DNA of 64,000 nt from an uncultured virus (IMG/VR IMGVR_UViG_3300025483_001155) (IMGVR_UViG_3300025483_001155), one strand, 5' to 3'. Shown: positions 22,507-62,266, counted from the stretch's first letter. Numbers and translations are program-made. The notes: generated by a model from the letters alone, not told the origin.

Positions 22507-23763
22507 TTATAAGTTTTGTTTAACCTTCGCTTGTTCATCGAATACCAATATTGGTTCTTCATTTCCTAAAATAAATTCATCTGTAATATGTACAGAACTT
22601 AGTCCCTGTTTTGCCAATTTTGGCAATTTGAATTGTATTTGCAAAAGTGATTTTTCAATTACACTTCTCAATCCTCGAGCGCCTGTTTCATCTGTCGCTG
22701 CTTTTTTTGCAATCTGATTTAATGCTGAATCTGAAATGATCAATTCTACACCATCAAGTCTAAACAATTTTTTAAATTGTGCAACAATACTATTTTTAGG
22801 CTCAGTCAATACTTGTACTAACTGATGTTCAGTGAGTGAATCAAGACCAACAATGATTGGAAATCTTCCCATAAATTCTGGGATGACACCGTATTTTATT
22901 ACATCTTGTGCTTCTACTTGCTCACGGATATTTATCTTATTAGTCGATTTATCATACACAACAGCACCAAAACCAATACCTGCGTTGGATGTTAATCGAC
23001 GTTCAATAACTTTATCAATGCCAACAAAGGCGCCGCCAACTACAAATAGAATTTTACTTGTATCAACTTCAATCATATCTGAGCCTGGATGCTTTCGTCC
23101 ACCGCCAGGTGGTACTCGCACTACCGAACCTTCAACAATTTTTAGTAGAGCCTGTTGCACACCTTCACCACTTACATCTTTTGTGATAGATACGTTTTCG
23201 CCTTTCTTGGCTTTCTTATCAATTTCGTCAATATATATAATACCACATTCGGCTTTTTTAACATCAAAATCCGCTGCTATAAGTAGTTTTTGTACTACGT
23301 TTTCCACATCGTCACCAACATAACCACTTTCAGTAAGTGATGTTGCATCAATTTGCGCAAATGGCACATCTAAAAATTTTGCAACTGTTTTAGCAAGTAA
23401 TGTTTTACCAGTACCAGATGGTCCCATAACCATTACATTGGATTTATCTAATTCAACACCATCCGAATCATCAGCATGTATACGTTTGTAATGATTATAA
23501 ACTGCAACACTAAGGACTTCTTTGGCCTCGTCTTGCCCAATAATGTGTGCGTCCAAGAATTCTTTAATGTCTTCCGGGCCAGGAACAGAACTAATATCAG
23601 TCCCGCTGTCACTAGTAAAGCTTTCTTTTGAGTCATGAATGATTTCATAGCACAAGTCAATACACTCATTGCAAATGAACTGATTAGGCCCTGCAATGAG
23701 TGTTTTAACTATATCTTTTTCTTTGTTACAAAATGAACAAGTATAATCTTTAGTATCAGTCAA
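22507..23763 (-). CDS. clpX: ATP-dependent Clp protease ATP-binding subunit ClpX
   Basis: CSFC..CNEC zinc finger, [30 protein letters not shown] loop; TTG start. Confidence 0.97.
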
Positions 23764-23775: not shown

Positions 23776-25146
23776 TTATTTCTTGTCTAACCAGCCTTGA
23801 CGCTGTACCAGACTTGTGTTTTGTTTTCTAGTTATTTCGTCTTCAGTTAGTTCTTTAACATTTTCTTCCATAACAGTATCGTCTATATTAGGATAAATGT
23901 CAAGTTCTTTTTTGTCTTTTTTTGCAAATAATGCATCAAATATTTCTTCTTGGTGACCTTTATTTGTATGACGATTTTGAAAACTATAGTTTGCAGAAAT
24001 TAGTAACAATACTGCCAATGGATCAAATACAAAAATGAATACAATAATTAACCAGCGCACTGCATCGTCGATTGTATTTCTTTCTGTATTACCATAAACT
24101 AGTTCTGCAATATATTTAATTGGACCAATTTCTGCTTCCAACATACGAACTTCAGTTTCTAATTCAAATTTAGTAACTAGTAACCCAGATATGCCGTCTT
24201 CAGACACTTTAACTGTTTCTAATAATTTTGTAATTTTTGCAGTATTATCTATTTCTGCGACACGTTCTAATTGTGTACGCAGACTTGTAATAGTTTCTTG
24301 TGATTTTTGAACATCGCGGTCTGCAATAGAACGCAAACGTTTTATTTCAATTCTTGCTTGTTCAATAACTGATGTATCAATACTTGTACGAATATCTTCT
24401 ACAATGCTAACTAGACGTTGCTTTTCTGATTGCAGAAGTGAACGGAATTCATCAACTTTATTTGCTGTACGAGGCCCATAATTACCATCCGTCTTAACAC
24501 CAACCAATGCTTGTAATTTTTTAATTTCATCATTTACAATAAATGATTGTAGATTTTCGAGTGTAGTATCTATTTTTGAAATCTGTGCTAGGTATGATTC
24601 TACTTGGTCTTCGGAACCAGTTTGTTGGTTTGAGATGATAGCAAGTTGTTCATCAATTGCTGGCTGAACTCTTGCATATGCTTGGGCCATACGTTGTTGT
24701 TCAGTGTCAATCTGTGTTTGTATTTCATCTGTATTATTTGTATTTTGTGTTTCAAGTTTTTCAATCTTAATTTCAGACCGTGCAATATCATCTTCATACC
24801 GAAGAATATCATTGCTTATACGTTCTATACGTGCTTGCGATTGTAGACCTTCACTTGCTTGCTCTAAGTGAGCGCGTGATAGAAAGCCAAAAATGCCCAT
24901 CGAGGTGATGAACATTAATACAACTACTGCAAATGTAAGATACGATTTTAATAGAAACGGCGCACGTTTCCAATTACGATAAACCCAAGATGCGGCAACC
25001 AACTTGCCTATTTCTAAAGATCCAGCCATGATAGCAACTGGTATTGCAGATGCAGCAAAAATTGCCATAAGTCCTGCAACTGAAAACCAAGCTGCAACCG
25101 CAGCTATAGTTAGGGCGACTATGAAAACCACTAGTGGAAAAAACAT
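23776..25146 (-). CDS. Membrane-anchored coiled-coil protein with PG-binding-like insert
   Basis: Three N-terminal TMs, long coiled coil, LQALVGVKTDGNYGPRT, C-terminal TM FVFDPLAVLLL. Confidence 0.75.
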   Translation of the reverse strand: MFFPLVVFIVALTIAAVAAWFSVAGLMAIFAASAIPVAIMAGSLEIGKLVAASWVYRNWKRAPFLLKSYLTFAVVVLMFITSMGIFGFLSRAHLEQASEGLQSQARIERISNDILRYEDDIARSEIKIEKLETQNTNNTDEIQTQIDTEQQRMAQAYARVQPAIDEQLAIISNQQTGSEDQVESYLAQISKIDTTLENLQSFIVNDEIKKLQALVGVKTDGNYGPRTANKVDEFRSLLQSEKQRLVSIVEDIRTSIDTSVIEQARIEIKRLRSIADRDVQKSQETITSLRTQLERVAEIDNTAKITKLLETVKVSEDGISGLLVTKFELETEVRMLEAEIGPIKYIAELVYGNTERNTIDDAVRWLIIVFIFVFDPLAVLLLISANYSFQNRHTNKGHQEEIFDALFAKKDKKELDIYPNIDDTVMEENVKELTEDEITRKQNTSLVQRQGWLDKK

Positions 25147-25183: not shown

Positions 25184-25192
25184 GTATTTATC
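25184..25192 (-). promoter_or_regulatory. T4-like late promoter GATAAATAC
   Basis: Identical 9-mer recurs at 30771, 42490, 47915, 50589, 52589, 54448 and 57755 upstream of minus-strand genes. Confidence 0.7.
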
Positions 25193-47891: not shown

Positions 47892-47908
47892 TTCGTGTAA
47901 CTCCTAGA

Positions 47909-48598
47909 TTACATGTATTTATCAAAATACTCTTGAACCTTAGTAGCCCATAACAATGAATACTTATCGAATTCTTCCCCTTCTACAACAAATTCTTGAT
48001 AATTACCGAGATTATCTGCCTCAGCGTCCCACCCAATCATCATAATAACAATAGTGCGAATATCAGTGCCATATAATTCATTATGTGCTGCTGCATATGC
48101 TGCGCCTTGTAAGAAATAATCATCTATCCATGCACGTTTTTTAGGTTTACGTGTTGTTTTGAAGTCAATAATTGCTTGCTGTCCTTTATATACGCCAATG
48201 CAATCTGCGGTACCAGCATATAACCCAGGGTAATATAGAGGTACTTCTGTCCCCCATACTTCACTAATCTTACTAAGACCATCTTTGATAACAATGTCTG
48301 AAAGCTCTTTAGCCATCTGATGGATGAGATTTGATCCACTTGGTCTATCTTCTTCCAGAATAAACTTTTCTAAATGCAAGTGTACTTGTGTGCCAATTCC
48401 AGTAGCAAGGTTCATAATACGATTTGCTTCTTCATTGCCAACACGGCGGCGCCATTCATGTAACGCTGTTTTATCTGCAAGTGCACTCAAAACTGTTGTA
48501 ACACTTGGTAAGGGCTTACCTTCAGGTGTTTGATAGTGACGGGATCCGTCTACATTCACACGTGATAGGGGAGCATAGGTATAAGTTTCTTTTAACAT
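47909..48598 (-). CDS. PD-(D/E)XK exonuclease (Cas4/RecB-like phage exonuclease)
   Basis: PSVTTVL, GTQVH, YAGTAD, IIDFKT, QGAAY. Confidence 0.88.
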   Translation of the reverse strand: MLKETYTYAPLSRVNVDGSRHYQTPEGKPLPSVTTVLSALADKTALHEWRRRVGNEEANRIMNLATGIGTQVHLHLEKFILEEDRPSGSNLIHQMAKELSDIVIKDGLSKISEVWGTEVPLYYPGLYAGTADCIGVYKGQQAIIDFKTTRKPKKRAWIDDYFLQGAAYAAAHNELYGTDIRTIVIMMIGWDAEADNLGNYQEFVVEGEEFDKYSLLWATKVQEYFDKYM

Positions 48599-48681
48599 AT
48601 TTCTATTATACTATACTTTTATATAAATTACAAGTCTTTATTTACTATAATATAGTTATATAGCAATTATTATATGCCAAG

Positions 48682-48710
48682 AAAAAAGCGTAAGATTAAT
48701 CTTACGCTTT
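48682..48710. terminator. Terminator-like hairpin
   Basis: AAAGCGTAAGAT-TA-ATCTTACGCTTT palindrome with flanking A tract. Confidence 0.7.
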
Positions 48711-48735
48711 AATAGATTATAATTTTTTAAATTAA

Positions 48736-49224
48736 TTACAAATGTTTTTTTAATTCTTCAATCATAGTTGCTTTTGTATTTCTACGATCCAATTGCACAC
48801 CTAGATTTTCATCTGCCCAAATATCAATTTCTTTTTTAGTCATAGTTTCAAAATCAGGATTAGTTTCTACTTTTTTATTATTTTTAGTGTCGATGATTAA
48901 ACTAGTTTCAGTCTTTTCTACTGTAATTGGAGTGACAGTTTCTACTACTGCATCTTTTACTTTTTCTTCAACTGCAATTTGAATTCGTTCTTTTTCTGCT
49001 TCAAGATTTTTTGCTAAGGATTCAGTCTGTGTATCTGCAATTCTTGCAGCATTCTCTCTTGCTGCTTTATTTTCTAATGTTGCCTTACGTTTTTCTGCAA
49101 CCTCTGGTGATAACGATGCCAACACTGCTTCAGTTGTATTGTTTTCAATAGATTTTAGTAAATTCTGCATTTCTTTTTTAGAAACTATTTTCGGTTGGTT
49201 ACCGCCTTTTATGATAAGTGGCAT
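48736..49224 (-). CDS. Hypothetical protein with C-terminal helix-extension-helix motif
   Basis: MTKKEID.WA..LGVQLDRR.TK..MI. Confidence 0.6.
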   Translation of the reverse strand: MPLIIKGGNQPKIVSKKEMQNLLKSIENNTTEAVLASLSPEVAEKRKATLENKAARENAARIADTQTESLAKNLEAEKERIQIAVEEKVKDAVVETVTPITVEKTETSLIIDTKNNKKVETNPDFETMTKKEIDIWADENLGVQLDRRNTKATMIEELKKHL

Positions 49225-49544
49225 TATTTCATTCTCCTCGATGTTGCTTTAGAAGCAAGTTTTTTAACTGTATCTCTAGAATCATCATCTTTATTTGATG
49301 TGGGGGCAAATTCTAAGTCAATACTATTTAAACTTACATTACTAACATATTTACTATTTGATAACATATTAATCAAACTTTCTGGGGTAATAGGATGACC
49401 CAAATCATTTAATTCACGTACCATTATATCCGTTCCGATGGTATTAATATCATTCGCCTTTAAGCGAACAAGATATACATTTATATCATTAATAAGTTGC
49501 GACTTATAATTGTCATTTTCGCTTAAAAGTGTTGAAATTTTCAT
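49224..49544 (-). CDS. Hypothetical late protein
   Basis: MKISTLLSE N-terminus. Confidence 0.65.
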   Translation of the reverse strand: MKISTLLSENDNYKSQLINDINVYLVRLKANDINTIGTDIMVRELNDLGHPITPESLINMLSNSKYVSNVSLNSIDLEFAPTSNKDDDSRDTVKKLASKATSRRMK

Positions 49545-49545
49545 A

Positions 49546-50556
49546 TTATGATCTCTTTGCTCTGCCTAGAGGTTCGTCATTAGGACCAGATGCTGCTTCA
49601 TCGCCGCTTGCAAAATCTACTTCTACATCATCTTCGAAATCATCTTGCATATCACCGCCGATTACGTCACCTGCAGACATATCATCTGCTGGAGCTTCAC
49701 CATTCAGAACCAAAACTGCGTCATTCACAGTATCTTTTGTTGCACGTGCTTGTCCCAATAATCCTGCTACTGCATCATTTACTGCATCTTTAAATGATGC
49801 TGCTCTTTCTGGACCGTGTGAATATGCCATTTCATCTGTCAGTGGGCCAAGTTGATCGTTTTGTAGTTTGCCTAGTTTTTCAATCATGTCTTGTAGTTCA
49901 TCTACTATACCACGAGCCGCCATCATAACTTCTGCTTCTGCAGCATCACTTTCAAGTAATTTGTTAAGTTGTGCTAGTAGGCCTTCTTCTAACTTTTCTT
50001 TTTTCATTTTATATTCCTTTGGTGCTTCGTAAGTATTGCTATACTTTGTCATTGTATCAAACTTTGGTGCATCACCTTCGTTTGTTTTTTCTGCTTTTGA
50101 CGCATGTACTGCTTTACGCTGTGCATCTGATTTGTATTTACCCTCAGTTGCTACTGATTCATTCTTTAAGAATGCCGGTTTATCATCTGACTTATCGTCT
50201 GGTGTGCCATTGTCATCCATTGGCATCTTACCGTCGCCTTTGGCTTTCTTCTTAGCCGGCGCTTTGCCTTTTTTCTTTGCATCTTGATATGCTTTTAAAC
50301 CTGCTGGTAATTCACCTTCCGCAACGTGTGCTTTCAATAGTGATTTGATTGTTTCAATCATAAGCATGTTTTCAACATATGCACGATCCTGATAGTTCGA
50401 AGTCATTTCACGCTTTTGTGCTTCCAATTGAACTTTCGCTTCTCTTAGTGATTCTAGATCACCTTCTATTTCATAACCGAAATTGCTTTTCATATACTCA
50501 TTCATTTTTGAAGAGATAGCAACTGGGTTAGAGTTGTAAAAAATTGTTTTATTCAT
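49546..50556 (-). CDS. Acidic helical late protein, possible prohead scaffold/core
   Basis: Late promoter at 50589; multiple xxE motifs; acidic C-terminus. Confidence 0.55.
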   Translation of the reverse strand: MNKTIFYNSNPVAISSKMNEYMKSNFGYEIEGDLESLREAKVQLEAQKREMTSNYQDRAYVENMLMIETIKSLLKAHVAEGELPAGLKAYQDAKKKGKAPAKKKAKGDGKMPMDDNGTPDDKSDDKPAFLKNESVATEGKYKSDAQRKAVHASKAEKTNEGDAPKFDTMTKYSNTYEAPKEYKMKKEKLEEGLLAQLNKLLESDAAEAEVMMAARGIVDELQDMIEKLGKLQNDQLGPLTDEMAYSHGPERAASFKDAVNDAVAGLLGQARATKDTVNDAVLVLNGEAPADDMSAGDVIGGDMQDDFEDDVEVDFASGDEAASGPNDEPLGRAKRS

Positions 50557-50618
50557 GATATTTGCCCCAATACATAAAGTTATATTATGTATTTATCTTT
50601 TTAGTTTCATTTTATAAT

Positions 50619-51245
50619 CTATTTAATCGATTCATATATAGATTTAATACTACGTTTGGCACTTCCTGCTTCTGATTTTGCTCTAGTAAATCTTGCTTCG
50701 GCAACATTCATTTTACTAATATCTTTACGCTTTTTCGCTTTTGCATATGTATCTTTATATTGTATCGCATCAAAATAAAATTGTTCAAATACTGCATTAC
50801 TCGCCATTATTTTTGTTAATTCTGGCGAGTTCATTTTCTTCCCAGAATTCAAGTGTTTTGTAATAACATATGCAGTTTCGTATAAACAAATATTCTCAAA
50901 TAGTGTATCATTTGAACGATTGTCTCTAATATCATAGTAACCATCATCAGTCTTCTCAACTGAAAACATTCCTACTTTTACACCATTTGGTGTCTTTGTA
51001 GACTCATTCATCGTTGTTGCAACTTTTTTAGAAACATTTGAACTGGCACTGTTGAACGCATTCAAAATATTTTCCATTGCTTTAATATCTGCTGTCTTTA
51101 CTCCGATAGATGTATCTATATGTCCAGATTGCTCTGCTGCTTGTTTTTCATGGGCAACTTGCTCTTTCAATGCTGATTTGTCACCGTTAAGTGCTTTCAT
51201 CAGATTTGACATTGCATTTACATCTTTTTGGCTAGGTGCTGTCAT
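50619..51245 (-). CDS. Hypothetical protein
   Basis: GGAGG SD; operonic. Confidence 0.7.
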   Translation of the reverse strand: MTAPSQKDVNAMSNLMKALNGDKSALKEQVAHEKQAAEQSGHIDTSIGVKTADIKAMENILNAFNSASSNVSKKVATTMNESTKTPNGVKVGMFSVEKTDDGYYDIRDNRSNDTLFENICLYETAYVITKHLNSGKKMNSPELTKIMASNAVFEQFYFDAIQYKDTYAKAKKRKDISKMNVAEARFTRAKSEAGSAKRSIKSIYESIK

Positions 51246-51256
51246 TTTGTCCTCCG

Positions 51257-51451
51257 TTAGTTGACACGATACCCTTTTAGTGTTGGTATTAATACGCCTT
51301 TATGCACTAGTTTATCAGCGATTAAGGCATTTCTATCACTTAGTTGCGATTCATTAACATATTCATTTTCAGAAAAAAATTCTACCAAAAGATCATTTTC
51401 TTCTTCGGTGACCATAACATATATGCCACCTAAAATTTCCTGTAATTTCAT
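51257..51451 (-). CDS. Small hypothetical protein
   Basis: MKLQEIL start; AGGAG SD. Confidence 0.65.
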   Translation of the reverse strand: MKLQEILGGIYVMVTEEENDLLVEFFSENEYVNESQLSDRNALIADKLVHKGVLIPTLKGYRVN

Positions 51452-51462
51452 ATTAAACTCCT

Positions 51463-52023
51463 TTACTTATTGAGTTTATTTAATAGACTTCTAAATTGTA
51501 TTGCTGTTTTAGGATCATTTGCAAGAGCGCCCAATGATTTTGCTTGCTGCGCCATCGCAAAACGTTGCACAGGCGTTAATGCTTTTCCTTGCTCGGCTCT
51601 ATCTAATGCTTTTGCTGCCTGTTGGCCGCTAATACCGCCCAAGGCCTTCTTGCCCAATCGTTGCATTGCCTGTGACTTCTTGGACATTGTAGCAGGATCA
51701 GAATCGCCATCTGACTGTTGCTGTGCTTGCTGCGCTTGAGCCTGTTGTACGCCCTTCATTTCACCCGGTGTTAATGAAGTACGTGTACCTTGAGAGCCTG
51801 TAGAATATGCTTCATCGACACTAAACCCCAAAACTTCTTTGGCTGCATTTTCATTTCTATCACGTAATGCCCGCATCAATTCAACATATTTACCGAAATC
51901 AAGAGTTTTCATTCGGTTACGTACATCATCATCACTGGAACCAACTAAATCTGCGATACCAGTCAATCTTGTATTATAAGTTTCAGTGACCATTGCGTTT
52001 TCTATACTATCTTTTAATCCCAT
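51463..52023 (-). CDS. Hypothetical Gln-rich protein
   Basis: Operonic ORF. Confidence 0.65.
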   Translation of the reverse strand: MGLKDSIENAMVTETYNTRLTGIADLVGSSDDDVRNRMKTLDFGKYVELMRALRDRNENAAKEVLGFSVDEAYSTGSQGTRTSLTPGEMKGVQQAQAQQAQQQSDGDSDPATMSKKSQAMQRLGKKALGGISGQQAAKALDRAEQGKALTPVQRFAMAQQAKSLGALANDPKTAIQFRSLLNKLNK

Positions 52024-52030
52024 TATTTCT

Positions 52031-52315
52031 CTACCTATTCAGCATTTTTAAGCGTTTACTTGCTGGATTCATTCTCTTAGTCATTTTTGATTTTCGTGCC
52101 ATACGAGAACCCATTTTTGCTTTAGTTTTTGCTAATGTAAATCGTTTCTTAACATTAACTGGCCTAAAGCATGCAGTGGGGTTAGCAACTGTTTTACCTT
52201 TTAATCTACCTGACGAACAACGATATTTACGTACTACTTTTTTGCCACTACGAGCATAAACAAGTTTTGCTTCATAAAATTCTTCATCAGGTGTTACAAT
52301 TTCTTCTATAAGCAT
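52031..52315 (-). CDS. Small basic protein
   Basis: KVVRKYRCSSGRLKG..C; Lys/Arg-rich. Confidence 0.7.
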   Translation of the reverse strand: MLIEEIVTPDEEFYEAKLVYARSGKKVVRKYRCSSGRLKGKTVANPTACFRPVNVKKRFTLAKTKAKMGSRMARKSKMTKRMNPASKRLKMLNR

Positions 52316-52563
52316 TATATCACCTTAAACACAGAAGTCAATAGTGCAATTAGCAATGTACCAAATAATGTTGAACTTGCCCAAACAACTATCTTTTTTA
52401 ACTCCGTAAATTGTTCCTTTGTATCCAATGTCTGTCTTTCTACTAATGTTTCTAACCGCCTGATTGAATCATCTAGTTTCCTAAATCGTTCATGATTAAC
52501 TGCCACATGAGTTTCTAAACTCTGCATCTCTAGTGCTGCTAATTGCGGTTCATTTATAGACAT
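52315..52563 (-). CDS. Coiled-coil protein with C-terminal TM
   Basis: Likely start MSINEP (GGAG SD); SLETHV; late promoter 52589. Confidence 0.65.
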   Translation of the reverse strand: MSINEPQLAALEMQSLETHVAVNHERFRKLDDSIRRLETLVERQTLDTKEQFTELKKIVVWASSTLFGTLLIALLTSVFKVI

Positions 52564-52626
52564 CGTTCTTCTCCACGAATTGTTATATGTATTTATCATT
52601 TTAGTTTAGAAGGATTATCCACATAT

Positions 52627-52656
52627 AAAAAACCCAGTATTAATACTGGGTTTTTT
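52627..52656. terminator. Bidirectional Rho-independent terminator
   Basis: Perfect palindrome AAAAAACCCAGTATTAATACTGGGTTTTTT. Confidence 0.8.
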
Positions 52657-52756
52657 CTTTACATTCACTGCTTAATGGGGGATCTCCACATTCTATTTCA
52701 TTATGCGAATGATTCCAAGACCATACTAGGTAGTGGGCGCTCAATAGAATGTAGAT

Positions 52757-53146
52757 TTATAGTAGATCTGACATCTCAAATTCCATCGTGATAGGATCCA
52801 TTGGTACACCATTAATATCTACACCGTAGAATATTTCTTTAAGTAGTGCAACATTGTCGCCAGCACGTTCAAACGCTTGTCCGTGTTCTACTGCAAATTT
52901 AAAAATCATACCATTTCCAGTTAATGTTGGAGCAAGACCAGTAAGTGTTACTGGAATGGGACTATTCATTATTACTGGTTGTGCAACTAGATTAATTAAG
53001 TTACATACGTCATCAAAATTTTGCTGTGACTGGTCTAATATATCACCAGTTGAAGTGATATCCAATGTCTTTACATATATTGTATAAAAATTCAAGTTGC
53101 CTGATATATTTTCACTTGAACCCGCAGAACCGTGTATTCTTGCCAT
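52757..53146 (-). CDS. Probable virion protein, paralog of 54534..54797
   Basis: MARIHG..GNLNFYT..FAVEH. Confidence 0.6.
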   Translation of the reverse strand: MARIHGSAGSSENISGNLNFYTIYVKTLDITSTGDILDQSQQNFDDVCNLINLVAQPVIMNSPIPVTLTGLAPTLTGNGMIFKFAVEHGQAFERAGDNVALLKEIFYGVDINGVPMDPITMEFEMSDLL

Positions 53147-53189
53147 ATTATTTCTCCATATTATATTATATTATATTGTATTAGTATTA

Positions 53190-54419
53190 TTAATGTGCAG
53201 TGAACCCAGATGGCGGAGTGTAAACGACATCATTTCCAACGTTGAAATATCCACCGAAACTTATGACATTAGAGCTTCTGGAACCAGCAAAAATGACTGG
53301 CGGCACGCTATTTGTAGAATAAACCGCCCCTGACCCAGATGCTGGATCACTGGGCCACCAGGTAGTATTATTCTTATTAATCCAAAGTTCTCCAGTTGCA
53401 CTATCATATGCAAATTGTATTACATCCGATTCTCGAACTGGTGCCCCAAGACCCATGTCTGTAACTGTTACTACGCCATTTGTCTTCGTGATTATTTTCC
53501 CAGTATCAAGCGTATAGGTATGCGATCCGTCTTCCATGCCAAAGCCGAACTGTGTTTGATCTGATCCTGACACTCCTATCATACCTGACGTTGATTCAGC
53601 CCATGCTGCAGAATAGTGCGTCCATATAAACTCAAAGTATTTTTTCCCTGCACTAAGAGTGTTACTTGGAACAGCATTAGTCCAATTATATCCAGTAGTA
53701 TCACCTGTAAAAATGAATCCGTCCTTATATGTGGTCGGGTTGCTGCCAAACGATAAGGTGGTCTCGTTCATTCGAGAATCTGTAGTAAATGTAATAGGAG
53801 TAGTAAAACTCAGTGCTGCGGTAGTAGTAGTAGATATAACGTGTATTCCATCAGTTGCTTTTGCACGGAATGTAAAGCTTCCAGCATCTGTCTCTGTAAT
53901 ACTAGGAGTTAACGTAAATGTTCCATCATTATTATTTACAATTGTTGCTTGTGCTTGATTGCTTGGACTTGTATCATATGTATATGTTATATCAAATCCT
54001 TCTGGATCTGTTGCTGCAACAGTTAGTGTGTTTGCAGTGCCGTCTGAATTTAATGCTACTGAACTTGGTAATTCTGTTGTCCATGTAGGCGTTTCATCTG
54101 GGCCTGCCCAAACTTTGATCCATTCACTGCCATTGTTTATATGTAGTGTGTCAGAATCACTAAGAAATGCTAAATCGCCCTCATTTGCTGCAGCCGCATC
54201 ACGTGCAGCAATACTAGCATATATTGTAACACCACCGCCAGATGATGTTGCGCCGCCGCCCGAACTGCCGCCTGAACCAACTGTATGTCCACCAACAGTT
54301 GCACCATCGTGTACTACTAATTGATTTGTAGTTGTATTCACCGTGACTTCACCTGCTGCGCCAGTAAACGATGCATGTTCTGCAGTTGTTCCACGTCTGA
54401 ATTTTACTGAGTATGCCAT
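53190..54419 (-). CDS. Fibre-like protein: Mtd_N-like N-terminus, Ig-like domain, C-terminal SPRY/ConA-like domain
   Basis: FRRGTTAEHASFTGAAGEV..HDG; ATDPEG..YT; GKKYFEF..IQFAYD..GELWINKN. Confidence 0.75.
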   Translation of the reverse strand: MAYSVKFRRGTTAEHASFTGAAGEVTVNTTTNQLVVHDGATVGGHTVGSGGSSGGGATSSGGGVTIYASIAARDAAAANEGDLAFLSDSDTLHINNGSEWIKVWAGPDETPTWTTELPSSVALNSDGTANTLTVAATDPEGFDITYTYDTSPSNQAQATIVNNNDGTFTLTPSITETDAGSFTFRAKATDGIHVISTTTTAALSFTTPITFTTDSRMNETTLSFGSNPTTYKDGFIFTGDTTGYNWTNAVPSNTLSAGKKYFEFIWTHYSAAWAESTSGMIGVSGSDQTQFGFGMEDGSHTYTLDTGKIITKTNGVVTVTDMGLGAPVRESDVIQFAYDSATGELWINKNNTTWWPSDPASGSGAVYSTNSVPPVIFAGSRSSNVISFGGYFNVGNDVVYTPPSGFTAH

Positions 54420-54479
54420 ATTATTTTCTCCATAATGGTATATGTGAGTATTTATCAATATCTGATGATAATTAAAAAC

Positions 54480-54510
54480 AAAAAAAGACCCAGCATAGCC
54501 GGGTCTTTTT
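54480..54510. terminator. Rho-independent terminator
   Basis: AAAAGACCC...GGGTCTTTT with A tract. Confidence 0.7.
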
Positions 54511-54533
54511 ACTCTATAGATAGAGTTTATGTA

Positions 54534-54797
54534 TTAGTAATCAAAGTCTGTTACTGTGTAACCAGTTGCTGTACTTAGTGATGCTGCATCCCATGCGCCG
54601 TTGTTTTCAACTGCGAAACGAACATCTGTGCCTGCGCCGCCGTTAACACCTAGGATAACTACTGTTGCACGTGTGCCTACTGCTTCAACAAGAACTTTGT
54701 TGTCAACTGCGCCCGCGCCTGCGTCTGCTGTGAAATGTACTAGTGAGCCTGTTAGGAACTGACCTGCATCATATGATTCATGTACTTTTGCTACCAT
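54534..54797 (-). CDS. Small probable virion protein
   Basis: GGAG SD, ATAAATA upstream, own terminator. Confidence 0.65.
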   Translation of the reverse strand: MVAKVHESYDAGQFLTGSLVHFTADAGAGAVDNKVLVEAVGTRATVVILGVNGGAGTDVRFAVENNGAWDAASLSTATGYTVTDFDY

Positions 54798-54875
54798 TTT
54801 ATTTTCTCCATTAAATGTTTTGGGACTCTATTGTCCTATACTTTTATTTATCTTTTTTGTACCAGAAATTATATA

Positions 54876-55724
54876 TTACTTTCTTCTGGATTGAAATTTT
54901 GTTAGACCAGATTTTGTTGGTCTATCATACGTTGTTTTTGCCAATCGTTTGCCTAGTTCTTCAGCGCCCTTACTAATAGCATAAATGCCACCAATTGCTG
55001 CTGCCCCTTTAACAATAGGTTTATCCCAAATCTTTTTCTTTTTATCGTTTCTATCATTTACCATATAATTGCCACGCTTTTGAAAAGATAGTAATGGTTT
55101 CATAAACTCACTGCGGAGTGCTTTGGAACGCATATATTGAACACAGCGTGTTACTACTAGTGCACGTTGATTTTGATTCAAATTATCCCAATCACCAATC
55201 AATCGGCGCATTGATTTCATCATACTATCTTGTATATTCAATTGGTTTTGGAATCTAAGTAACATTTTTTGCTCAAACGCTGAATTAGTTTTGTTATTTC
55301 CAATGTGAGTTAGATATTGTACTAAATCTGCTTTTTTAGGTGATAATCTTTTCTTAGCAATTACATCTTTTTCATTACTATCATCTTGGTCTTTGCCCAT
55401 CAAACGGTTTAAAGAAATGTATAGATCCGTTCCACTTGTTCTAAATGTATCAAAATTTCTAAAGGCTACTGTACGTTTTGCATATTCACTTGCCAATGGC
55501 GCATAATCATAATCTTTATTAAAAATATTTAATAGCATTAAATACATGAATGAAACATTGGCGGCATCATCTAAATTAACCTCACTTGCTATCTTTTTAT
55601 TTCTAAACAAGCGGCTTTCAGTTAGTTCGTGTACTAATTGTAAACTTTTATCATCATTGTCATCAATTTCGTGGCCACCATATATTGTTGCCCATTGGCT
55701 TGCTGTATATTTTTTTTCACTCAT
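54876..55724 (-). CDS. Hypothetical protein
   Basis: ELTESRLFR..FRTSGTDLY motifs. Confidence 0.7.
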   Translation of the reverse strand: MSEKKYTASQWATIYGGHEIDDNDDKSLQLVHELTESRLFRNKKIASEVNLDDAANVSFMYLMLLNIFNKDYDYAPLASEYAKRTVAFRNFDTFRTSGTDLYISLNRLMGKDQDDSNEKDVIAKKRLSPKKADLVQYLTHIGNNKTNSAFEQKMLLRFQNQLNIQDSMMKSMRRLIGDWDNLNQNQRALVVTRCVQYMRSKALRSEFMKPLLSFQKRGNYMVNDRNDKKKKIWDKPIVKGAAAIGGIYAISKGAEELGKRLAKTTYDRPTKSGLTKFQSRRK

Positions 55725-55926
55725 GTGTCATCCCCTTAAATAGGTTTGCAAGATTAATAATTTTATTACTTGCATATGTTTTGCAGCATCTAGGTATGAT
55801 TGAATGTATAATAATTGCAAATACGGCAATCTGAAGTTGTAGAGCAATACCAAGTGCAAATTTTGCATGTTGTAACGGCCCCATATTCGCTTCTTCCAAG
55901 TGTTCTTTACATTCTTTACTAAACAT
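55717..55926 (-). CDS. Small hypothetical protein
   Basis: HL......H..FA....IIHSIIP motif. Confidence 0.6.
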   Translation of the reverse strand: MFSKECKEHLEEANMGPLQHAKFALGIALQLQIAVFAIIIHSIIPRCCKTYASNKIINLANLFKGMTHE

Positions 55927-55938
55927 ATTATTTCCTAA

Positions 55939-57285
55939 TTACTTTGCGAAATTCGCAGCACTAAATTCTAATCTATCAACAATTTTCATGGCGCGGCCAA
56001 CATGGTCTACGATAACAAAACCCTCAGGATCAGTTACGTTAAAAGAGCCATCTGGCTGTTCAATAAAACTATCAATCGCTTTAATGTCTCGCATTTTGCG
56101 CTGAAACATCATTTTTACTGCTTCGGTTTTTAAATACGCTCTATACATATTAGCAATATTTTGCGCATTCTCTTCAATAAACTCAACAACTTGTTTCTTT
56201 TTATCTAATTTTGCTAGTCCTGCTTTTCCTTCTGGCCCAGTTTTTAATTTAGTCATATCAGTATCAAACTTGTCTTTTAATTTATTAATAAAATCTGATA
56301 CGAATTTATCTGCATCTTGTTCTAATGCATTACCTGAACGAATAGGTGTGTTTGCGTGTGCCTTAAGTGCAGCAACTATATCTATTCCACCAATACTATT
56401 ATTAATTTTCTTAAATACTTCTGGGCTAGGGATATCAAAACTTGCAAGTTCGTTAATTGCAGTTTTAATTGCACTAATTTCCTTCTTATTAAGATTTACT
56501 TGCCCCGATACATCTTTAATACGTGCATCTGTGTACCAAACATTAGATGATTTATTCAAGTTACTTGCATCATAGCCAAATCTAGCACTCATATCTGCTA
56601 ATGTATCGCCCTCATAAATGGTATGAAATACTACACCAAGATCAGATGATAACATTTCACGTGCAGTATTACTATCGGCAGGAACAACGTATGTTATAGT
56701 ATTAGGCTTGAACGCTATATACTTTTCACCCTCAATCTGTACTTCTTTTAAATCATCACGTGTAAAAAGAAGATCACCTTGCACTACTCCAGAAATGCCC
56801 AAGTTTTTAAGGTGTTCAAGTGATGCATATAATTTATCACGCAATCCTTTTTTACTTATTGCTTCGCCGTTTTTGGTGACATCTGCATGGTTTTTTTCAA
56901 TGTCTTCCGGCTTTTTATTTAATTTAGGGCTTTTTGCAAATACGCCTTTGGTTCCAACAAAGAATTCTCCATCTTCTGGATCAACGCCGGCAAATATCGC
57001 AGGGGCGCCGTCCCATTTTGTTGTAATCGCATCGCCGCCGCCGTCTCCATCCAATGAAGATAATAATTTGGAGTAAGTGCTAACAACACGTTTTAATCCC
57101 TCTTGCCCATACATGAAGATTAATTCCTCAGCATGATCCAAGTGCGTATTTTTTGCTTCACTCAAATCTTTATCAAACAGACCCTTTAGTTTTGAGTGAA
57201 ATCCTATTTGCTTTTGGCGAGGTTTACGAGGCCCTCTAAATCTGCGCTCAAGGCCCTGACTTAAAATAATCTCACTGATTTTCAT
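55939..57285 (-). CDS. Conserved phage protein with ligase-like nucleotidyltransferase motifs
   Basis: KNTHLDHAEE, TTKWDGAPA (KxDG), QGDLLF, PEGFV, MKIVDR. Confidence 0.6.
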   Translation of the reverse strand: MKISEIILSQGLERRFRGPRKPRQKQIGFHSKLKGLFDKDLSEAKNTHLDHAEELIFMYGQEGLKRVVSTYSKLLSSLDGDGGGDAITTKWDGAPAIFAGVDPEDGEFFVGTKGVFAKSPKLNKKPEDIEKNHADVTKNGEAISKKGLRDKLYASLEHLKNLGISGVVQGDLLFTRDDLKEVQIEGEKYIAFKPNTITYVVPADSNTAREMLSSDLGVVFHTIYEGDTLADMSARFGYDASNLNKSSNVWYTDARIKDVSGQVNLNKKEISAIKTAINELASFDIPSPEVFKKINNSIGGIDIVAALKAHANTPIRSGNALEQDADKFVSDFINKLKDKFDTDMTKLKTGPEGKAGLAKLDKKKQVVEFIEENAQNIANMYRAYLKTEAVKMMFQRKMRDIKAIDSFIEQPDGSFNVTDPEGFVIVDHVGRAMKIVDRLEFSAANFAK

Positions 57286-57500
57286 TTCTTATCTCCAAAT
57301 GGATTTTCACCAGTTAATTGCGGTCTTGCAAACCACAACTTAAACCACTCATCCGTTCCAGGCTGTATATTATTCTTTTTCTGATACTCGCCTTTTTCTT
57401 GGCCAGTATGTGAAATATTCTCCTGATGTTGAGATACATCATAGGGCTTATATATACCTGCTAGAACCTTTAGTTGGTGCAACTGCTGTTCAAAATCCAT
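57282..57500 (-). CDS. Small hypothetical protein
   Basis: LKVLAGI..IQPGTDEWFKLWF. Confidence 0.65.
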   Translation of the reverse strand: MDFEQQLHQLKVLAGIYKPYDVSQHQENISHTGQEKGEYQKKNNIQPGTDEWFKLWFARPQLTGENPFGDKK

Positions 57501-57736
57501 TATTTGTCTACACTATTCATGCCTCGCTTAAACTTCCGCGGGTCTTTTGTACGGATACTGTTAACTAAACGTTTTTGTAAATCATTTGAGGTTTCTTCAT
57601 CAAAATTATTTTCAATGAATTCCATCAAATGTATCGCACCTGCAATAAGGTGTTCACCCTTTTGTTCAACTAGCCGCTTATTATCTTTATCATAAGATAT
57701 GCTGTTTAGTTCTTCAAATAGACTTTTACGTTTCAT
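57500..57736 (-). CDS. Small hypothetical protein
   Basis: GGAG SD; late promoter 57755. Confidence 0.65.
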   Translation of the reverse strand: MKRKSLFEELNSISYDKDNKRLVEQKGEHLIAGAIHLMEFIENNFDEETSNDLQKRLVNSIRTKDPRKFKRGMNSVDK

Positions 57737-57761
57737 AACAATTCTCCGTTAAGTGTATTTA

Positions 57762-59183
57762 TCAAGTTTCGTCAAAAGCAGATCGACTTTTAGTTTTAAG
57801 CATCGATCTGAGTGAACTTGCTGCCTGCGTCTTTTCAAATACCGGAGTATCATCTTCATCTGATTTGTTTAGAGTAGTTTTCTTTCTAAGTTGGTCAACC
57901 ACACTAGAAGAAACGTTTGTTGATGATGGTGTGCCGGCGCCATTACTATTTTGGTCTGGATCATCTGTAATGCGCAAACTATCTCTATCAAATAATAAAC
58001 TTACTTTACTACCAACACCAGAAGATGATCGTGTTTTTAACAATTGAAGTTGGTATTGACCTCTCTCACGCATTGCATTAGATGTAAAGATACCTATAAC
58101 GTTATCTGCAGTTTGAATTTTACTAATGCCACCAGCAATATGAGAGTGATCAAATTCAATTTCTTCAACTGCACTACGATTTAATTGTGATGCTGTCACT
58201 GTAACAGTCTGTGTTTCCATAGAAAAGTTGCGCATTTCTTCGGTAACATATTTGTCTTTGGTGAATGTATCACCTGCTTGGACCTTTTTAGTTGCTGGCA
58301 TTAACAAATCTAGATAGTCAATACACATACAATCAACTGTTTTGCCAGTTTGTATCTGAAGTTCTTTCAAGTAAGACCTTAGATCATTGATTGTTGAACC
58401 ACTCGGAAGATACTTTATACGTAGCATACCGGACTGTTTGCCTTTCGCTTTGACTTGTAGTTCAACATCATCTAGGTCTTTAAAAATGCGTCTAGTACTG
58501 CGGTCCGTCTGCATTGCATACATACGCATACTTGAAAGTTCCTCGGATAACTCCAATGTGAAGTAGACACAATTCAACCCAGCCTCCGCCCAATTCAGGC
58601 TCATATTTTGCATAAAAAGGGATTTACCTGCCCCGGAGCCGCCTGCAAAAATCGTAATCTCCCCACGATTAATGCCACCATATAACTTATCATCAAGAGA
58701 TTTCCAACCAGTCGTAATCTGACCATTATTGTCTTTCATCCGTTCAAGCACACCTCTAGGATCAGCAAAATAATCTGTTCCTAAACTACGTGCCAGTCCA
58801 ATTTGAACAGCCTCTTTAATTCTAAGTTCTACTTCACCGTATTTGCCAGTCTCAAGTAAATCTGTGCTATCGATAATAGCCTTCTCAATAGCCTTGTGCC
58901 GGCAAAATGTCTCAAACTCATCCACAAACCATTCTTCGTGCTGGGTTATGTTGTCCAACTTCTCAATGTCTTGCCCCGTTTCTGCCTTAATAATTGCAGT
59001 ATCTGGCAGTGTAGAATAATCTTCACTATAATCAATAAGTTGTTTGACCACAGGACGAACACTGCGGTCAAAATATTCAGGCTTAATAATCCCTCTGATC
59101 CTAGTATATAGTTCAGGATTAGTCACCATGAATTGAATGAATAATTTCTGTAAGTCTGTGCTATAATTTTTTACTTCTGACAT
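57762..59183 (-). CDS. Replicative DNA helicase (T4 gp41/DnaB-like)
   Basis: AGGSGAGKS, TLELSE, IDYLDL, TASQLNR, LKTR. Confidence 0.93.
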   Translation of the reverse strand: MSEVKNYSTDLQKLFIQFMVTNPELYTRIRGIIKPEYFDRSVRPVVKQLIDYSEDYSTLPDTAIIKAETGQDIEKLDNITQHEEWFVDEFETFCRHKAIEKAIIDSTDLLETGKYGEVELRIKEAVQIGLARSLGTDYFADPRGVLERMKDNNGQITTGWKSLDDKLYGGINRGEITIFAGGSGAGKSLFMQNMSLNWAEAGLNCVYFTLELSEELSSMRMYAMQTDRSTRRIFKDLDDVELQVKAKGKQSGMLRIKYLPSGSTINDLRSYLKELQIQTGKTVDCMCIDYLDLLMPATKKVQAGDTFTKDKYVTEEMRNFSMETQTVTVTASQLNRSAVEEIEFDHSHIAGGISKIQTADNVIGIFTSNAMRERGQYQLQLLKTRSSSGVGSKVSLLFDRDSLRITDDPDQNSNGAGTPSSTNVSSSVVDQLRKKTTLNKSDEDDTPVFEKTQAASSLRSMLKTKSRSAFDET

Positions 59184-59189
59184 TTGTAT

Positions 59190-59288
59190 ATTATATCATT
59201 TCTATGTATAAAGGTCAACACTTTTAATCAAAAAGTGCCGAGTTTAAATTAGTTTCTTCTTTATATAGTGATTCGTATTATTTGTCAA
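59190..59288 (-). promoter_or_regulatory. Tandem sigma70 promoters for helicase (distal one with GANTC)
   Basis: TTGACC 59213-18 with TATAAT 59190-95; TTGACA 59283-88 with TATAAA 59260-65 and TGATTCG 59269-75. Confidence 0.75.
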
Positions 59289-59290
59289 GT

Positions 59291-59314
59291 AAAAAGGGCA
59301 CCGAAGCGCCCTTT
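59291..59314 (-). terminator. Rho-independent terminator
   Basis: AAAGGGCGC-TTCG-GTGCCCTTTTT. Confidence 0.75.
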
Positions 59315-59532
59315 TATTTTCCACTACCAAATCTGTCTTTTGGTCTATAAAAAATCTTTTGATTGTGAAATCTTCCTAACAAATCTCGAATTTCTTTCAA
59401 CTCTGCTGCCAAGCCATCATCATATTCTTCCATTAAACGCTGTGCTCTCCTTGAAACCTTTGCACTTAATGCATTTTCTATGATTTCTAGATCCCTAACT
59501 GATAACTTAAAATTTTCATTTGGTTTTATCAT
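59314..59532 (-). CDS. Small hypothetical protein
   Basis: 72-aa ORF after clpP. Confidence 0.6.
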   Translation of the reverse strand: MIKPNENFKLSVRDLEIIENALSAKVSRRAQRLMEEYDDGLAAELKEIRDLLGRFHNQKIFYRPKDRFGSGK

Positions 59533-59545
59533 GATATTATATACT

Positions 59546-60232
59546 CTAGTATGTAGTAATAATTTTATCAGCGATGCCGTGCCTAACTGCCTCCTCGGGC
59601 GTTAACCATACATCACTCTCTGGCAAAAGATTCTTACGAATATATGTTTCATTTTTGCCAGTGCATTTCTTATAATGGTCAAGCATACGTTCAGTTGATA
59701 ATTCAAACTCTTTAACAATCGACATTAGTTCGTGTTCTTTACCTTTTGAACCCCAACTATATTGATGTGACATTATACTTGTGTTCTGAGTAAGATAACG
59801 ATGTCCTTTTTCGCCAGACATCATTAGTAGTACCCCACAACTTGCAATCATGCCCATGCCATACGTATGTACTGGGATTTCACTTTGTTTAATTGTATCG
59901 ATTAAATGCATTGCACTTGCAACTGAACCACCCGGAGAATTAATATAAAGATGAATAGCAGAAGGACGTTGTTCTGCAGGCATCATATTATATTCCATAA
60001 TCATTTTTACCAATGGCATACAATTTTCTTGATTGAATTCCTTATCCATGAATAATACACCGTTATCATACAGAATTTCACCTGGCTTTTTAGGCTGCGT
60101 AGGTGGCGGTGGCATCTGCATCTGTGGGGGGACAGGTTGCTCTTTGGGTGACGGGATTACTTTTGTCTCTACAACTGGTTTCTTCCCTACCGTCTTTTTG
60201 GTTGTTTTCTTTTTAACTGGATTCTTTGCCAT
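59546..60232 (-). CDS. clpP: ATP-dependent Clp protease proteolytic subunit
   Basis: LYINSPGG, GMIASCG (catalytic Ser), MSHQ (His), DVWLTPEEA..GIAD; Lys/Pro-rich N-terminal extension. Confidence 0.92.
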   Translation of the reverse strand: MAKNPVKKKTTKKTVGKKPVVETKVIPSPKEQPVPPQMQMPPPPTQPKKPGEILYDNGVLFMDKEFNQENCMPLVKMIMEYNMMPAEQRPSAIHLYINSPGGSVASAMHLIDTIKQSEIPVHTYGMGMIASCGVLLMMSGEKGHRYLTQNTSIMSHQYSWGSKGKEHELMSIVKEFELSTERMLDHYKKCTGKNETYIRKNLLPESDVWLTPEEAVRHGIADKIITTY

Positions 60233-60251
60233 ATATTTGTATTTCCTATTA

Positions 60252-61253
60252 TTATCCCAAACGCATCTTTACGTTTATTTTAGTACTATTACTTATCTTA
60301 CTATCAATTATACTTTTTAAAGTATATAACTTACCATATTTATTAACTGCATCCGCTGCATCTTTTATTTCATTTTCCCATCTTGGAAAACTAACACTCC
60401 AACCATTTTCAATAGCCTGTTTAATTAATTTTTCACCTGCTTTATCTCTGTCAGGACTTAATATGATTTCGCCTTTAAATAAATTAATATAGTCTATTTG
60501 TTCTTTACTTGCTTCGTTACTCATTACAGCAACACAATCTAATGCCGCTGCATCAAATACACCTTCAGTTACTATTAAATACTGTCGATGACTCTTAATA
60601 ACATCAATATTATATATGAAGTCCTTGGGAGTCTTCATCATATATTTTGAATCTGCTTTTCCTGTATAGTCCCTGCCCGTGTAACCTACTATGCGGCTGC
60701 CCTGGTAGTATGGAATAATGACTCTGTTTCTAAATACTGGATGTGGACTCCAATATATATTACTTACATGGTCATATAGTCCACGATCTATTAGGTATTT
60801 AGCACCTAAAATTGCTCTTTTATCAGGTGAGTCAATTTGTAGTAAATCATCCAATAATACACTTCCTTCGGGTAATTCACAATCTTTAAATTTGGGTATA
60901 ATAGTACTAGATTTTTCACTAGTAAATATCATTGGACCGTCTGCTAATTCTTTATCTCGTATTGCTTGTAATTGAATACGTTTAATATCACCATCTGGAA
61001 TGCCCAAATTACGCATTAGTAAAATCATTTTTTTGTTAATGACCCTACCTGATTTATGTGATGCAGTGAACCCGCAGTTAAAACAATGATACGAAATACT
61101 TTCATCATCTGTACGAATACCACCACGTAATCTAGTATCGTTACGTGCTTCGCCGTTTTCTATACAACAAGGACAGTTAAAAGACAACCAACCACCCGAT
61201 GATTGCCGTCTCTTGTGCGGTAAATGTGAATATAATACTTGTTGTATTTCCAT
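60252..61253 (-). CDS. DNA primase (T4 gp61-like)
   Basis: CPCC..HCFNC zinc finger; RVIIP, GR, TEGVFDA, PDRD, KDA TOPRIM motifs. Confidence 0.9.
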   Translation of the reverse strand: MEIQQVLYSHLPHKRRQSSGGWLSFNCPCCIENGEARNDTRLRGGIRTDDESISYHCFNCGFTASHKSGRVINKKMILLMRNLGIPDGDIKRIQLQAIRDKELADGPMIFTSEKSSTIIPKFKDCELPEGSVLLDDLLQIDSPDKRAILGAKYLIDRGLYDHVSNIYWSPHPVFRNRVIIPYYQGSRIVGYTGRDYTGKADSKYMMKTPKDFIYNIDVIKSHRQYLIVTEGVFDAAALDCVAVMSNEASKEQIDYINLFKGEIILSPDRDKAGEKLIKQAIENGWSVSFPRWENEIKDAADAVNKYGKLYTLKSIIDSKISNSTKINVKMRLG

Positions 61254-61300
61254 AGTTAAATTATAACATTAATTTAGTTCATAGTCAAGGCGTTTTTAAA

Positions 61301-62227
61301 TTAGTCAAATAAATTTGAGTTGTTAAATCGTTCTGCCATTTTTTTATACATCTCTGGATCACGCTCAATTAATATTGCATTTCGGTTAATCAATCTTGCT
61401 GCTGAACCTGTACTACCACTACCGGCAAAAGTATCTAGAACTGTATCATTGGGATTACTACATAATGTAATAAAATATTCTAAGATTTCTTCTGGCTTTT
61501 GAGTTGGATGTATTTTATTTTTACCCAAACCGCCACTATATGATATTGTATTTGGAACAACACAATGAACTATATCATTAGTTTTTTTCAAATTACTATA
61601 AACTTTTTTGGCATCATCTAATGCATCATTAAAGCATTTATCCAAGTTACCGTAGATATCATCTTTAATATGCTTATACAAAATACTACTTACTTTGTCG
61701 GCAAGACTATAGCGTTCAACTATTGTACCTTTAACTGCATCACTATTAAATGTACGTTTACCACCGGGTTTAATACCAAATATAATATATTCACACCCAC
61801 TTACTGGATTTACATTCCTATTGAACGGTACTGCGGCTGGCTTTTTCCAAGTGAATACACGCTTGGGTTCAAATCCAACTGATTCCATTGCTTCCCAAAG
61901 ATGACTAATATATACATCACTGATGAAAACACAAAATGTCCCACCCTTGCGCATCTTATTAAACCATACCTCAGACCATTCTATAAGTTGCAGTTTGAAA
62001 TCAGTATTGCCTAGACTATCCCAATTTTCTGCAAAAGTCTTGTCAAATTTTTGACTATGTATTGCATTTTTATTTTCGCCAGTAACTGGATCAACCCATT
62101 TAACTTCCTGAGCACCTCTATCACTTATATTATAAGGTGGGTCAGTTAACAACAAATCAATTGAGTTATTATCAATTTGATTCGCAGCCGTTCGCATATC
62201 GCCGTTTATAGTAATAATTTTATTCAT
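61301..62227 (-). CDS. DNA N6-adenine/N4-cytosine methyltransferase, beta class
   Basis: TDPPYN precedes HPTQKPE and LDTFAGSGSTG. Confidence 0.9.
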   Translation of the reverse strand: MNKIITINGDMRTAANQIDNNSIDLLLTDPPYNISDRGAQEVKWVDPVTGENKNAIHSQKFDKTFAENWDSLGNTDFKLQLIEWSEVWFNKMRKGGTFCVFISDVYISHLWEAMESVGFEPKRVFTWKKPAAVPFNRNVNPVSGCEYIIFGIKPGGKRTFNSDAVKGTIVERYSLADKVSSILYKHIKDDIYGNLDKCFNDALDDAKKVYSNLKKTNDIVHCVVPNTISYSGGLGKNKIHPTQKPEEILEYFITLCSNPNDTVLDTFAGSGSTGSAARLINRNAILIERDPEMYKKMAERFNNSNLFD

Positions 62228-62266
62228 GCGTTTATTATATACGCAAAGTTAATAAATGTCAATAGA

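Follow-up and report, generated by a model that had tools for sequence, protein, structure and literature searches.

Promoter–ATG fusions and predicted leaderless early genes in an uncultured marine jumbo phage

In a 64,000-nucleotide (nt) stretch of DNA from the uncultured virus IMGVR_UViG_3300025483_001155 (the window; positions are counted from its first letter), four minus-strand genes for an exonuclease, a DnaB-like replicative helicase, a DNA primase and a DNA methyltransferase each begin 6 nt behind the -10 box of a sigma70-type promoter. Are these genes expressed from messages that begin with the start codon itself, with neither a 5′ leader nor a Shine–Dalgarno (SD) sequence, and would such a design be linked to the initiation factor IF3 and the ribosomal protein bS21 that the same phage encodes? 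An initial annotation of the window had proposed both. Here, our comparisons revealed that the promoter–ATG geometry exceeds chance expectation and is a conserved trait of a clade of marine jumbo phages with genomes of ~342 kb. We consider it likely, judging from the sequences compared, that the four genes give rise to leaderless early mRNAs from host-type sigma70 promoters, a design that would belong to a subset of the early genes and looks independent of IF3 and bS21.

Four promoter–ATG fusions in the window

The four promoters, the genes that they precede and one neighbouring signal are as follows, with gene products given in amino acids (aa).

48605..48633, minus strand: sigma70-type promoter of the exonuclease gene, TTGTAA-N17-TATAAT (TTGTAA at 48633-48628, TATAAT at 48610-48605), 6 nt from the ATG at 48598-48596
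47909..48598, minus strand: exonuclease gene, 229 aa, predicted leaderless (phrog_298, E 6e-57), beginning at the first start of its open reading frame (ORF) and without an SD
48685..48710, minus strand: hairpin resembling a terminator, with a T run, immediately upstream of the exonuclease promoter
59190..59218, minus strand: sigma70-type promoter of the helicase gene, TTGACC-N17-TGaTATAAT with an extended -10 (TTGACC at 59218-59213, TATAAT at 59195-59190), 6 nt from the ATG at 59183-59181
57762..59183, minus strand: DnaB-like replicative helicase gene, 473 aa, predicted leaderless (PF03796, phrog_19)
61260..61288, minus strand: sigma70-type promoter of the primase gene, TTGACT-N17-TGtTATAAT (TTGACT at 61288-61283, TATAAT at 61265-61260), 6 nt from the ATG at 61253-61251
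60252..61253, minus strand: DNA primase gene, 333 aa, predicted leaderless (phrog_47, Toprim_2)
62234..62262, minus strand: sigma70-type promoter of the methylase gene, TTGACA-N17-TATAAT with 12/12 consensus matches (TTGACA at 62262-62257, TATAAT at 62239-62234), 6 nt from the ATG at 62227-62225
61301..62227, minus strand: N6/N4 DNA methyltransferase gene, 308 aa, predicted leaderless (PF01555, E 7e-37)

The positions and the shared layout of the four sites (TTGnnn-N17-TATAAT-N6-ATG, minus strand) read as the initial annotation had described them, and its gene identities hold, by Pfam for DnaB, the primase and the N6/N4 methylase and by phrog_298 for the exonuclease. Its statement that the four genes have no SD was also borne out, as no 4-nt SD core was present between positions -20 and -4 of any of them and all four start with ATG; across the window, such a core precedes 57 of the 108 ORFs and none of the four fused genes.

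Matches to the composite pattern TTG-N20-TATAAT-N6-ATG number four in the window against 0.05 expected, and none of 100 shuffled sequences reached four, which rules out a chance origin of the pattern. The promoter half of the composite is enriched as well (TTG-N20-TATAAT, 14 matches against 3.15 expected, 13 of the 14 on the coding strand), and the short pattern TATAAT-N6-ATG by itself is not, occurring five times where 3.13 are expected, a count that 24 of 100 shuffles reach. The start codons are well delimited: each of the four ATGs is the earliest ATG, GTG or TTG of its ORF, an in-frame stop lies 4-7 codons upstream, and the downstream in-frame starts of the four genes are without an SD, with the sole exception of a TTG at codon 23 of the primase.

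By consensus matching, from which promoter activity is predicted, the four sites score 10-12 of 12 with a 17-bp spacer throughout, the exonuclease site being the one that scores 10. A consensus scan of positions 47800-63800 placed three of the fused sites among the four top scorers (12, 11 and 11 of 12), two of these three carrying the extended -10 TG; the fourth top scorer (11/12), at 52341, overlaps an SD-led start.

Conservation of the 6-nt gap among marine relatives

A helicase search of IMG/VR identified 176 relatives; the comparison used the best 80 loci, at 73-100% protein identity. The upstream regions of the orthologues were compared as distinct 60-nt sequences from uncultured relatives at 60-100% protein identity, with the following outcome for each gene family.

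Helicase: 80 loci matched, 77 usable, 33 distinct upstreams; 6-nt gap in 25 of 33 (64 of the 77 usable loci)
Primase: 58 loci matched, 49 usable, 25 distinct upstreams; 6-nt gap in 24 of 25, one at 7 nt
Exonuclease: 33 loci matched, 33 usable, 23 distinct upstreams; 6-nt gap in 19 of 23, four at 9 nt
Methylase: 4 loci matched, 3 usable, 3 distinct upstreams; 6-nt gap in 3 of 3, no other form

Over the four gene families, the 6-nt gap is thus kept in 71 of 84 distinct orthologue upstreams. Among the helicase rows counted with this gap, 23 were scored by script and two (7 loci) were corrected by eye; both of the latter read TAGAAT-N6-ATG and had scored 9 since the alignment began at residue 3. 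One exonuclease row that the script had scored at 19 was also corrected by eye and reads TTGCAT-N17-TATACT-N6.

The spacer measures 17 bp in every orthologue upstream, and its sequence diverges. The -10 box occurs as TATAAT, TATAGT, TAGAAT, TAAAAT, TATTAT or TATACT, the sequence of the 6-nt gap varies too, and changes in the N-terminal codons of the orthologues are synonymous or conservative (ATGTCAGAAGTA, ATGTCCGATATA and ATGGCTGATGTA being examples). Such a conserved geometry with diverging bases would look like selection for zero leader length. Selection on an exact 6-nt gap fits data from Caulobacter, where every additional leader nucleotide roughly halves leaderless translation in reporters and 368 of the 385 leaderless mRNAs of C. 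crescentus begin with AUG (PMC8459731).

To which phage does the window belong? Its relatives include G006, a record of 342,607 bp that has terminal repeats and a CheckV completeness of 100%, which makes the window a portion of a jumbo phage genome. No close DNA relative of the window was found among deposited phages; the closest cultured helicase relatives are those of the jumbo phages PA5oct, Atu_ph07 and Phosso, at ~49-52% identity, and neither PA5oct nor Atu_ph07 has a promoter-fused helicase gene.

An alphaproteobacterium is the probable host, as the window encodes a full-length, alpha-type two-piece transfer-messenger RNA (tmRNA) at 27865-28214 (minus strand; Rfam RF01849, 118 bits against a gathering score of 50). 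ARAGORN also detects this tmRNA at 27865-28214, with the tag peptide ANANYAPEMALAA. A scan of bacterial genomes with the phage ClpX gave ~50% identity to many phyla and no finer host call, and a BLAST search that compared the tmRNA with 401 genomes from the class of one alphaproteobacterial metagenome-assembled genome returned short conserved matches only.

Leaderless or leadered messages

With a sigma70-type -10 box ending 6 nt before the ATG, transcription is expected to start at the A of the ATG. Host RNA polymerase would initiate at this nucleotide, so the resulting exonuclease, helicase, primase and methylase mRNAs would have a zero-length 5′ leader and no SD, and a 70S ribosome with initiator tRNA would bind the 5′-terminal AUG. 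This 5′-AUG route is efficient in the Alphaproteobacteria, the group to which the alpha-type tmRNA points as host. The initial annotation had placed the transcription start at or next to the A of the ATG; geometry and conservation support this by comparison, and the start itself, like the mode of translation, is what we infer from them. By analogy with T4-like phages, the fused genes would be expressed early.

The fusion of a sigma70 promoter to an ATG is itself a known gene design. The lambda cI mRNA transcribed from PRM has the classical leaderless layout of this kind (PMC10491246), and leaderless mRNAs are common in Caulobacter, with 385 in C. crescentus (PMC8459731). What the phage genes share with lambda cI and the bacterial leaderless genes (PMC8459731, PMC9031893, PMC10491246) is a -10 box ~6-7 nt before the ATG, the lack of an SD, a strong preference for AUG and selection for a zero-length leader. 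In the phage, by contrast, the design is predicted from sequence only; the genes concerned are early replication genes of the lytic cycle in an uncultured marine jumbo phage, and at least three gene families keep it across a clade.

Phages of the T4 family use early promoters of the host sigma70 and TATAAATA late promoters. The window resembles this arrangement, with TTGACA-N17-TATAAT sites, some with TG, before replication genes and a GATAAATA(C/T) box before structural genes. The known early and late messages of T4 are leadered, unlike the messages predicted here.

The phage also resembles phiKZ and AR9, jumbo phages whose transcription starts have been mapped, in being a large phage with its own promoter classes, and it differs from both in its predicted leaderless genes: phiKZ gave no leaderless transcript (PMC8244752), and the 5′ untranslated regions of AR9 measure 26-491 nt (PMC5312081).

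Several observations weigh against an exclusively leaderless mode of expression or fail to distinguish it. Promoter-like matches of at least 9/12 are not enriched in 47800-63800 (72 against 64.9 +/- 8.4 in shuffles). Predicted folding of the first 25 nt, in a genome that is AT-rich, has no discriminating power, three of the four genes having a value of 0 and other genes a median of -0.2 kcal/mol. Among the 33 distinct helicase upstreams, six have the promoter 22-24 nt away with a purine-rich leader and two have an SD without a nearby promoter; some lineages have thus swapped the fused helicase for a leader or SD form, and the phages can therefore do without the design. Public RNA runs in which parts of the stretch occur consist of contigs only, from which starts are not readable: the search listed 19 runs, eight RNA runs contained 5-15% of the sampled words, and the four compared with the stretch gave fragmentary contigs with no end pile-up reported; neither coverage nor a lack of it counts here as evidence. 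One RNA-library contig, from a relative that is 94% alike, runs from inside the helicase gene through its promoter to 59262, and therefore either readthrough or upstream-started transcripts exist, or the library contains DNA. No terminator was found between the methylase gene and the primase promoter, nor between the upstream ORF and the methylase promoter, and therefore polycistronic transcripts are likely too. Finally, the helicase gene has a second candidate promoter, which would give a leadered helicase transcript without an SD.

59260..59288, minus strand: further promoter-like element 76 nt ahead of the helicase ATG, reading TTGACA-N17-TATAAA, its spacer containing GAATC

Leadered or polycistronic transcripts probably coexist with the predicted leaderless ones. 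Could they be the functional messages, the promoters being real, the SD-independent translation taking place on AT-rich, unstructured leaders supplied by upstream promoters or readthrough, and the 6-nt gap mattering for transcription only? The missing terminators ahead of the primase and methylase promoters, the element 76 nt upstream of the helicase ATG and the contig that bridges the helicase promoter would all agree with this, as does the fact that 51 of the 108 window ORFs have no 4-nt SD core anyway. However, a promoter that only adds transcript needs no exact 6-nt hold, yet the great majority of distinct upstreams keep it. In addition, fused starts among the orthologues are invariably ATG, and the sole GTG start belongs to one of the two SD-led helicase forms, in a lineage whose leader carries AAGGAG; lineages that acquired a helicase leader also gained purine-rich, SD-like sequence (GAGAG, AAGGAG or AGGA). 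We therefore regard functional messages that are leadered throughout as quite unlikely, and retain leaderless messages as the preferred reading.

How general is the predicted leaderless design? Minus-strand promoter sites of at least 11/12 number 13 in the window; three have the 6-nt gap, eight are set 21-89 nt ahead of a start, and of the other two, one overlaps an SD-led start and the second is intragenic. From this spacing, most early promoters in the window are predicted to be leadered, and no further fused genes were found among its SD-less ORFs. The ORF starts at 26385 and 37369, which seemed to abut TATAAA boxes, were rejected as mis-called; the true ATGs are at 26355 and 37340, behind conserved leaders of ~25-30 nt. 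These boxes belong to a repeated promoter-like element, cTTGACA-N8-GAATC-N4-TATAAAGA, found on the minus strand at 26389-26416, 37372-37400 and 59260-59288; downstream of the first two copies come a conserved leader (gtataagttagaga..aagg) and small ORFs. A related class, aacTTGACA-N7-GAATC, occurs in G006 6-9 nt before ATGs.

In the complete relative G006, 143 strict promoter-like sites were found, and their distance to the next ORF-opening ATG spikes at 6 nt (six sites); four sites lie at 9 nt, and 37 form a leadered hump between 19 and 40 nt. Besides the primase and the helicase, AAA ATPases, a VWA/metallopeptidase protein, an AMP-binding enzyme and a small protein of a 'DNA polymerase' PHROG are among the ~12 strong cases at 5-9 nt. 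The design therefore marks a subset of early genes rather than replication genes as such.

The spread of functions in G006 also bears on the proposal that leaderless starts let genes evade a shut-off of SD-led messages, by a GGAG-cutting endonuclease or by modified 30S initiation. The RegB endonuclease of T4 cuts GGAG. The four products are needed throughout replication, and many other early genes are SD-led; we found no direct evidence for such a shut-off. The RegB family (REGB_T4, PF10715) had no match in any of four records, two of them 92-100% complete, in a search that had no positive control and so does not show its absence, and the fused design of G006 extends to genes unrelated to replication. 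Taken together, we judge evasion of a shut-off to be very improbable.

If starts map as predicted, the leaderless messages would form a conserved set of lytic genes for replication and DNA modification in an abundant clade of uncultured marine jumbo phages, and phages of Alphaproteobacteria would be exploiting the efficient 5′-AUG initiation of their host. Annotation is affected too, as gene callers looking for an SD will misplace starts of this kind. The clade further offers natural pairs of fused and leadered forms of one gene, the helicase and a late kinase gene, as material on the cost and gain of each design.

Two side observations concern the helicase locus. Marine metatranscriptome contigs cover the helicase gene of this phage or of close relatives (58127-59262). 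In G001, a near-identical record, a 1.5-kb insertion (window 59259-59263; L001 3845-5344) lies between the terminator of a 72-aa gene and the helicase promoter. The genes that it carries, for a 207-aa product and a second N6/N4 DNA methylase, each have a leader with GGAG, and the 207-aa ORF is preceded by a TTGACA...GAATC...TATAAA promoter, the same as the 59260-59288 element.

Late-type boxes and the clpX-infC-rpsU unit

A further proposal of the initial annotation was that ribosomes are moved by phage IF3 and bS21 away from leaderless replication mRNAs and towards SD-led structural ones. Both genes were confirmed by Pfam, and the unit that contains them is laid out as follows.

22507..23763, minus strand: clpX, the first gene of the clpX-infC-rpsU unit
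21982..22506, minus strand: phage IF3 gene (infC), 174 aa, both domains present (PF05198 88 bits, PF00707 73 bits, above cut-offs), its ATG directly after the clpX stop
21735..21989, minus strand: phage bS21 gene (rpsU), 84 aa, overlapping the end of infC by 8 nt (PF01165 over residues 22-73, 54.5 bits against a cut-off of 27)
23875..23903, minus strand: sigma70-like promoter (TTGACA-N17-GATACT) 111 nt ahead of the clpX start, within the 3′ end of the preceding gene
25185..25192, minus strand: late-type box GATAAATA ahead of the gene for a 456-aa membrane protein that precedes clpX, in 7/7 genomes

The phage IF3 aligns with solved IF3 structures over residues 8-153 (E 9e-31). The bS21 protein has an N-terminal extension of ~21 aa (21925-21989, minus strand) that is conserved in relatives, where tblastn alignments begin at residues 1-11; an internal ATG at codon 21 would yield a bS21 of canonical length. 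Huge phages carrying IF1, IF3 and bS21 with N-terminal extensions have been described (Al-Shayeb et al. 2020, PMC7162821; Chen et al. 2022, PMC9723584), and our phage resembles them in combining IF3 and an N-terminally extended bS21 in a genome of more than 200 kb. It differs in its conserved clpX-infC-rpsU unit near ClpS, Hsp20 and a tmRNA; those two papers do not connect the genes with leaderless mRNAs, and the word 'leaderless' occurs 0 times in either. Our full-text literature searches returned no paper linking phage IF3 or bS21 with leaderless mRNAs, and none describing the design of this clade.

For a translational switch, two phage factors would have to accumulate as infection proceeds: IF3, which acts against leaderless initiation, and bS21, which promotes SD pairing. 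Their genes are present, intact and translationally coupled. In cells, the AUU start of infC serves autoregulation; the phage gene, with its ATG directly after the clpX stop, would escape this control. The premise taken from the literature is sound: raised IF3 inhibits model leaderless mRNAs in Escherichia coli, and its effect is dual and sequence-dependent (PMC9031893), the latter point telling against a simple switch. In phages of Bacteroidetes, phage bS21 is reported to be expressed late (PMC9723584).

The timing signals of the unit point in two directions, as both a sigma70-like promoter and an upstream late-type box are present in 7/7 genomes compared. The late-type box, ~1.4-1.6 kb upstream of clpX, would allow late transcription through the operon. 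The sigma70-like site, which the initial annotation had raised as a caveat, reads TTGACA-N17-GATA(A/C)T and lies 140-310 nt before clpX, with diverged spacers; early co-expression of IF3 and bS21 with the predicted leaderless genes is therefore likely, which speaks against a switch.

The distribution of start types likewise gives a mixed picture. All nine GATAAATA(C/T) boxes of the window lie 19-47 nt before a gene start, for structural and other genes alike, mostly with GGAG or AGGA, so that the annotation's description of late genes as SD-led holds there and would suit a switch; within the window, the leaderless-type design is also confined to genes predicted to be early. In G006, however, a late-type box lies exactly 5 nt before the ORF-opening ATG at six sites, including that of a true ClpP, and 7 nt before the ATG of a virion protein, and thus the leaderless-type design is not confined to early genes in the clade. 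The point is well illustrated by a kinase-like gene (phrog_12810, Zeta_toxin/AAA_33). At 41761-42462 (minus strand) of the window it is SD-led, 28 nt behind a late-type box, and its orthologue in G006 (270170-270856) has the box only 5 nt from the ATG; by its sequence, the gene appears to be a natural swap between the fused and the SD-led designs. On the early side, eight of the 13 best promoter-like sites of the window are set 21-89 nt from a start, which a switch based on leaderless early messages would not lead one to expect.

Co-occurrence of fused genes with infC and rpsU could also be followed in the relatives. Both genes are present in 8 of 10 large relative contigs, and the two contigs without them are fragments estimated to be 24-37% complete. 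As all informative relatives carry IF3 and bS21, the clade therefore offers no contrast and nothing to correlate. Moreover, the lineage with the leadered, SD-led helicase has both IF3 and bS21 and keeps the fused primase and exonuclease.

Overall, the proposed switch found no support, given the unit's own conserved host-type promoter, the leadered early promoters and the fused late-type boxes of G006, and we consider it unlikely; the predicted leaderless design looks independent of the phage IF3 and bS21 genes. A broader version, in which orthologues toggle between fused and SD-led forms and an autoregulation-free IF3 and an extended bS21 retune host ribosomes, altering the balance of 5′-AUG and SD-led initiation during infection, would amount to virus-encoded control of the initiation pathway and seems to us similarly doubtful. 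The IF3/bS21 link is the more exciting idea and is put forward as a hypothesis only, with some evidence against its simple form.

The unit lies in a cluster of host-like genes at 16735-23763 (minus strand), which encodes PepA (an M17 aminopeptidase), a HIT protein, a nucleoside phosphorylase, ClpS, Hsp20 and an S-adenosylmethionine lyase-like protein in addition to bS21, IF3 and ClpX. The presence of a tmRNA together with ClpX, a ClpP-like protease, ClpS and Hsp20 in one genome suggests a phage-borne module for tagging and proteolysis. Further auxiliary genes, at 27088-27426, 29902-30615, 32850-33848 and 35170-35403, encode a ferredoxin, a B12-binding domain protein, a cation-efflux transporter and a DUF1127 protein.

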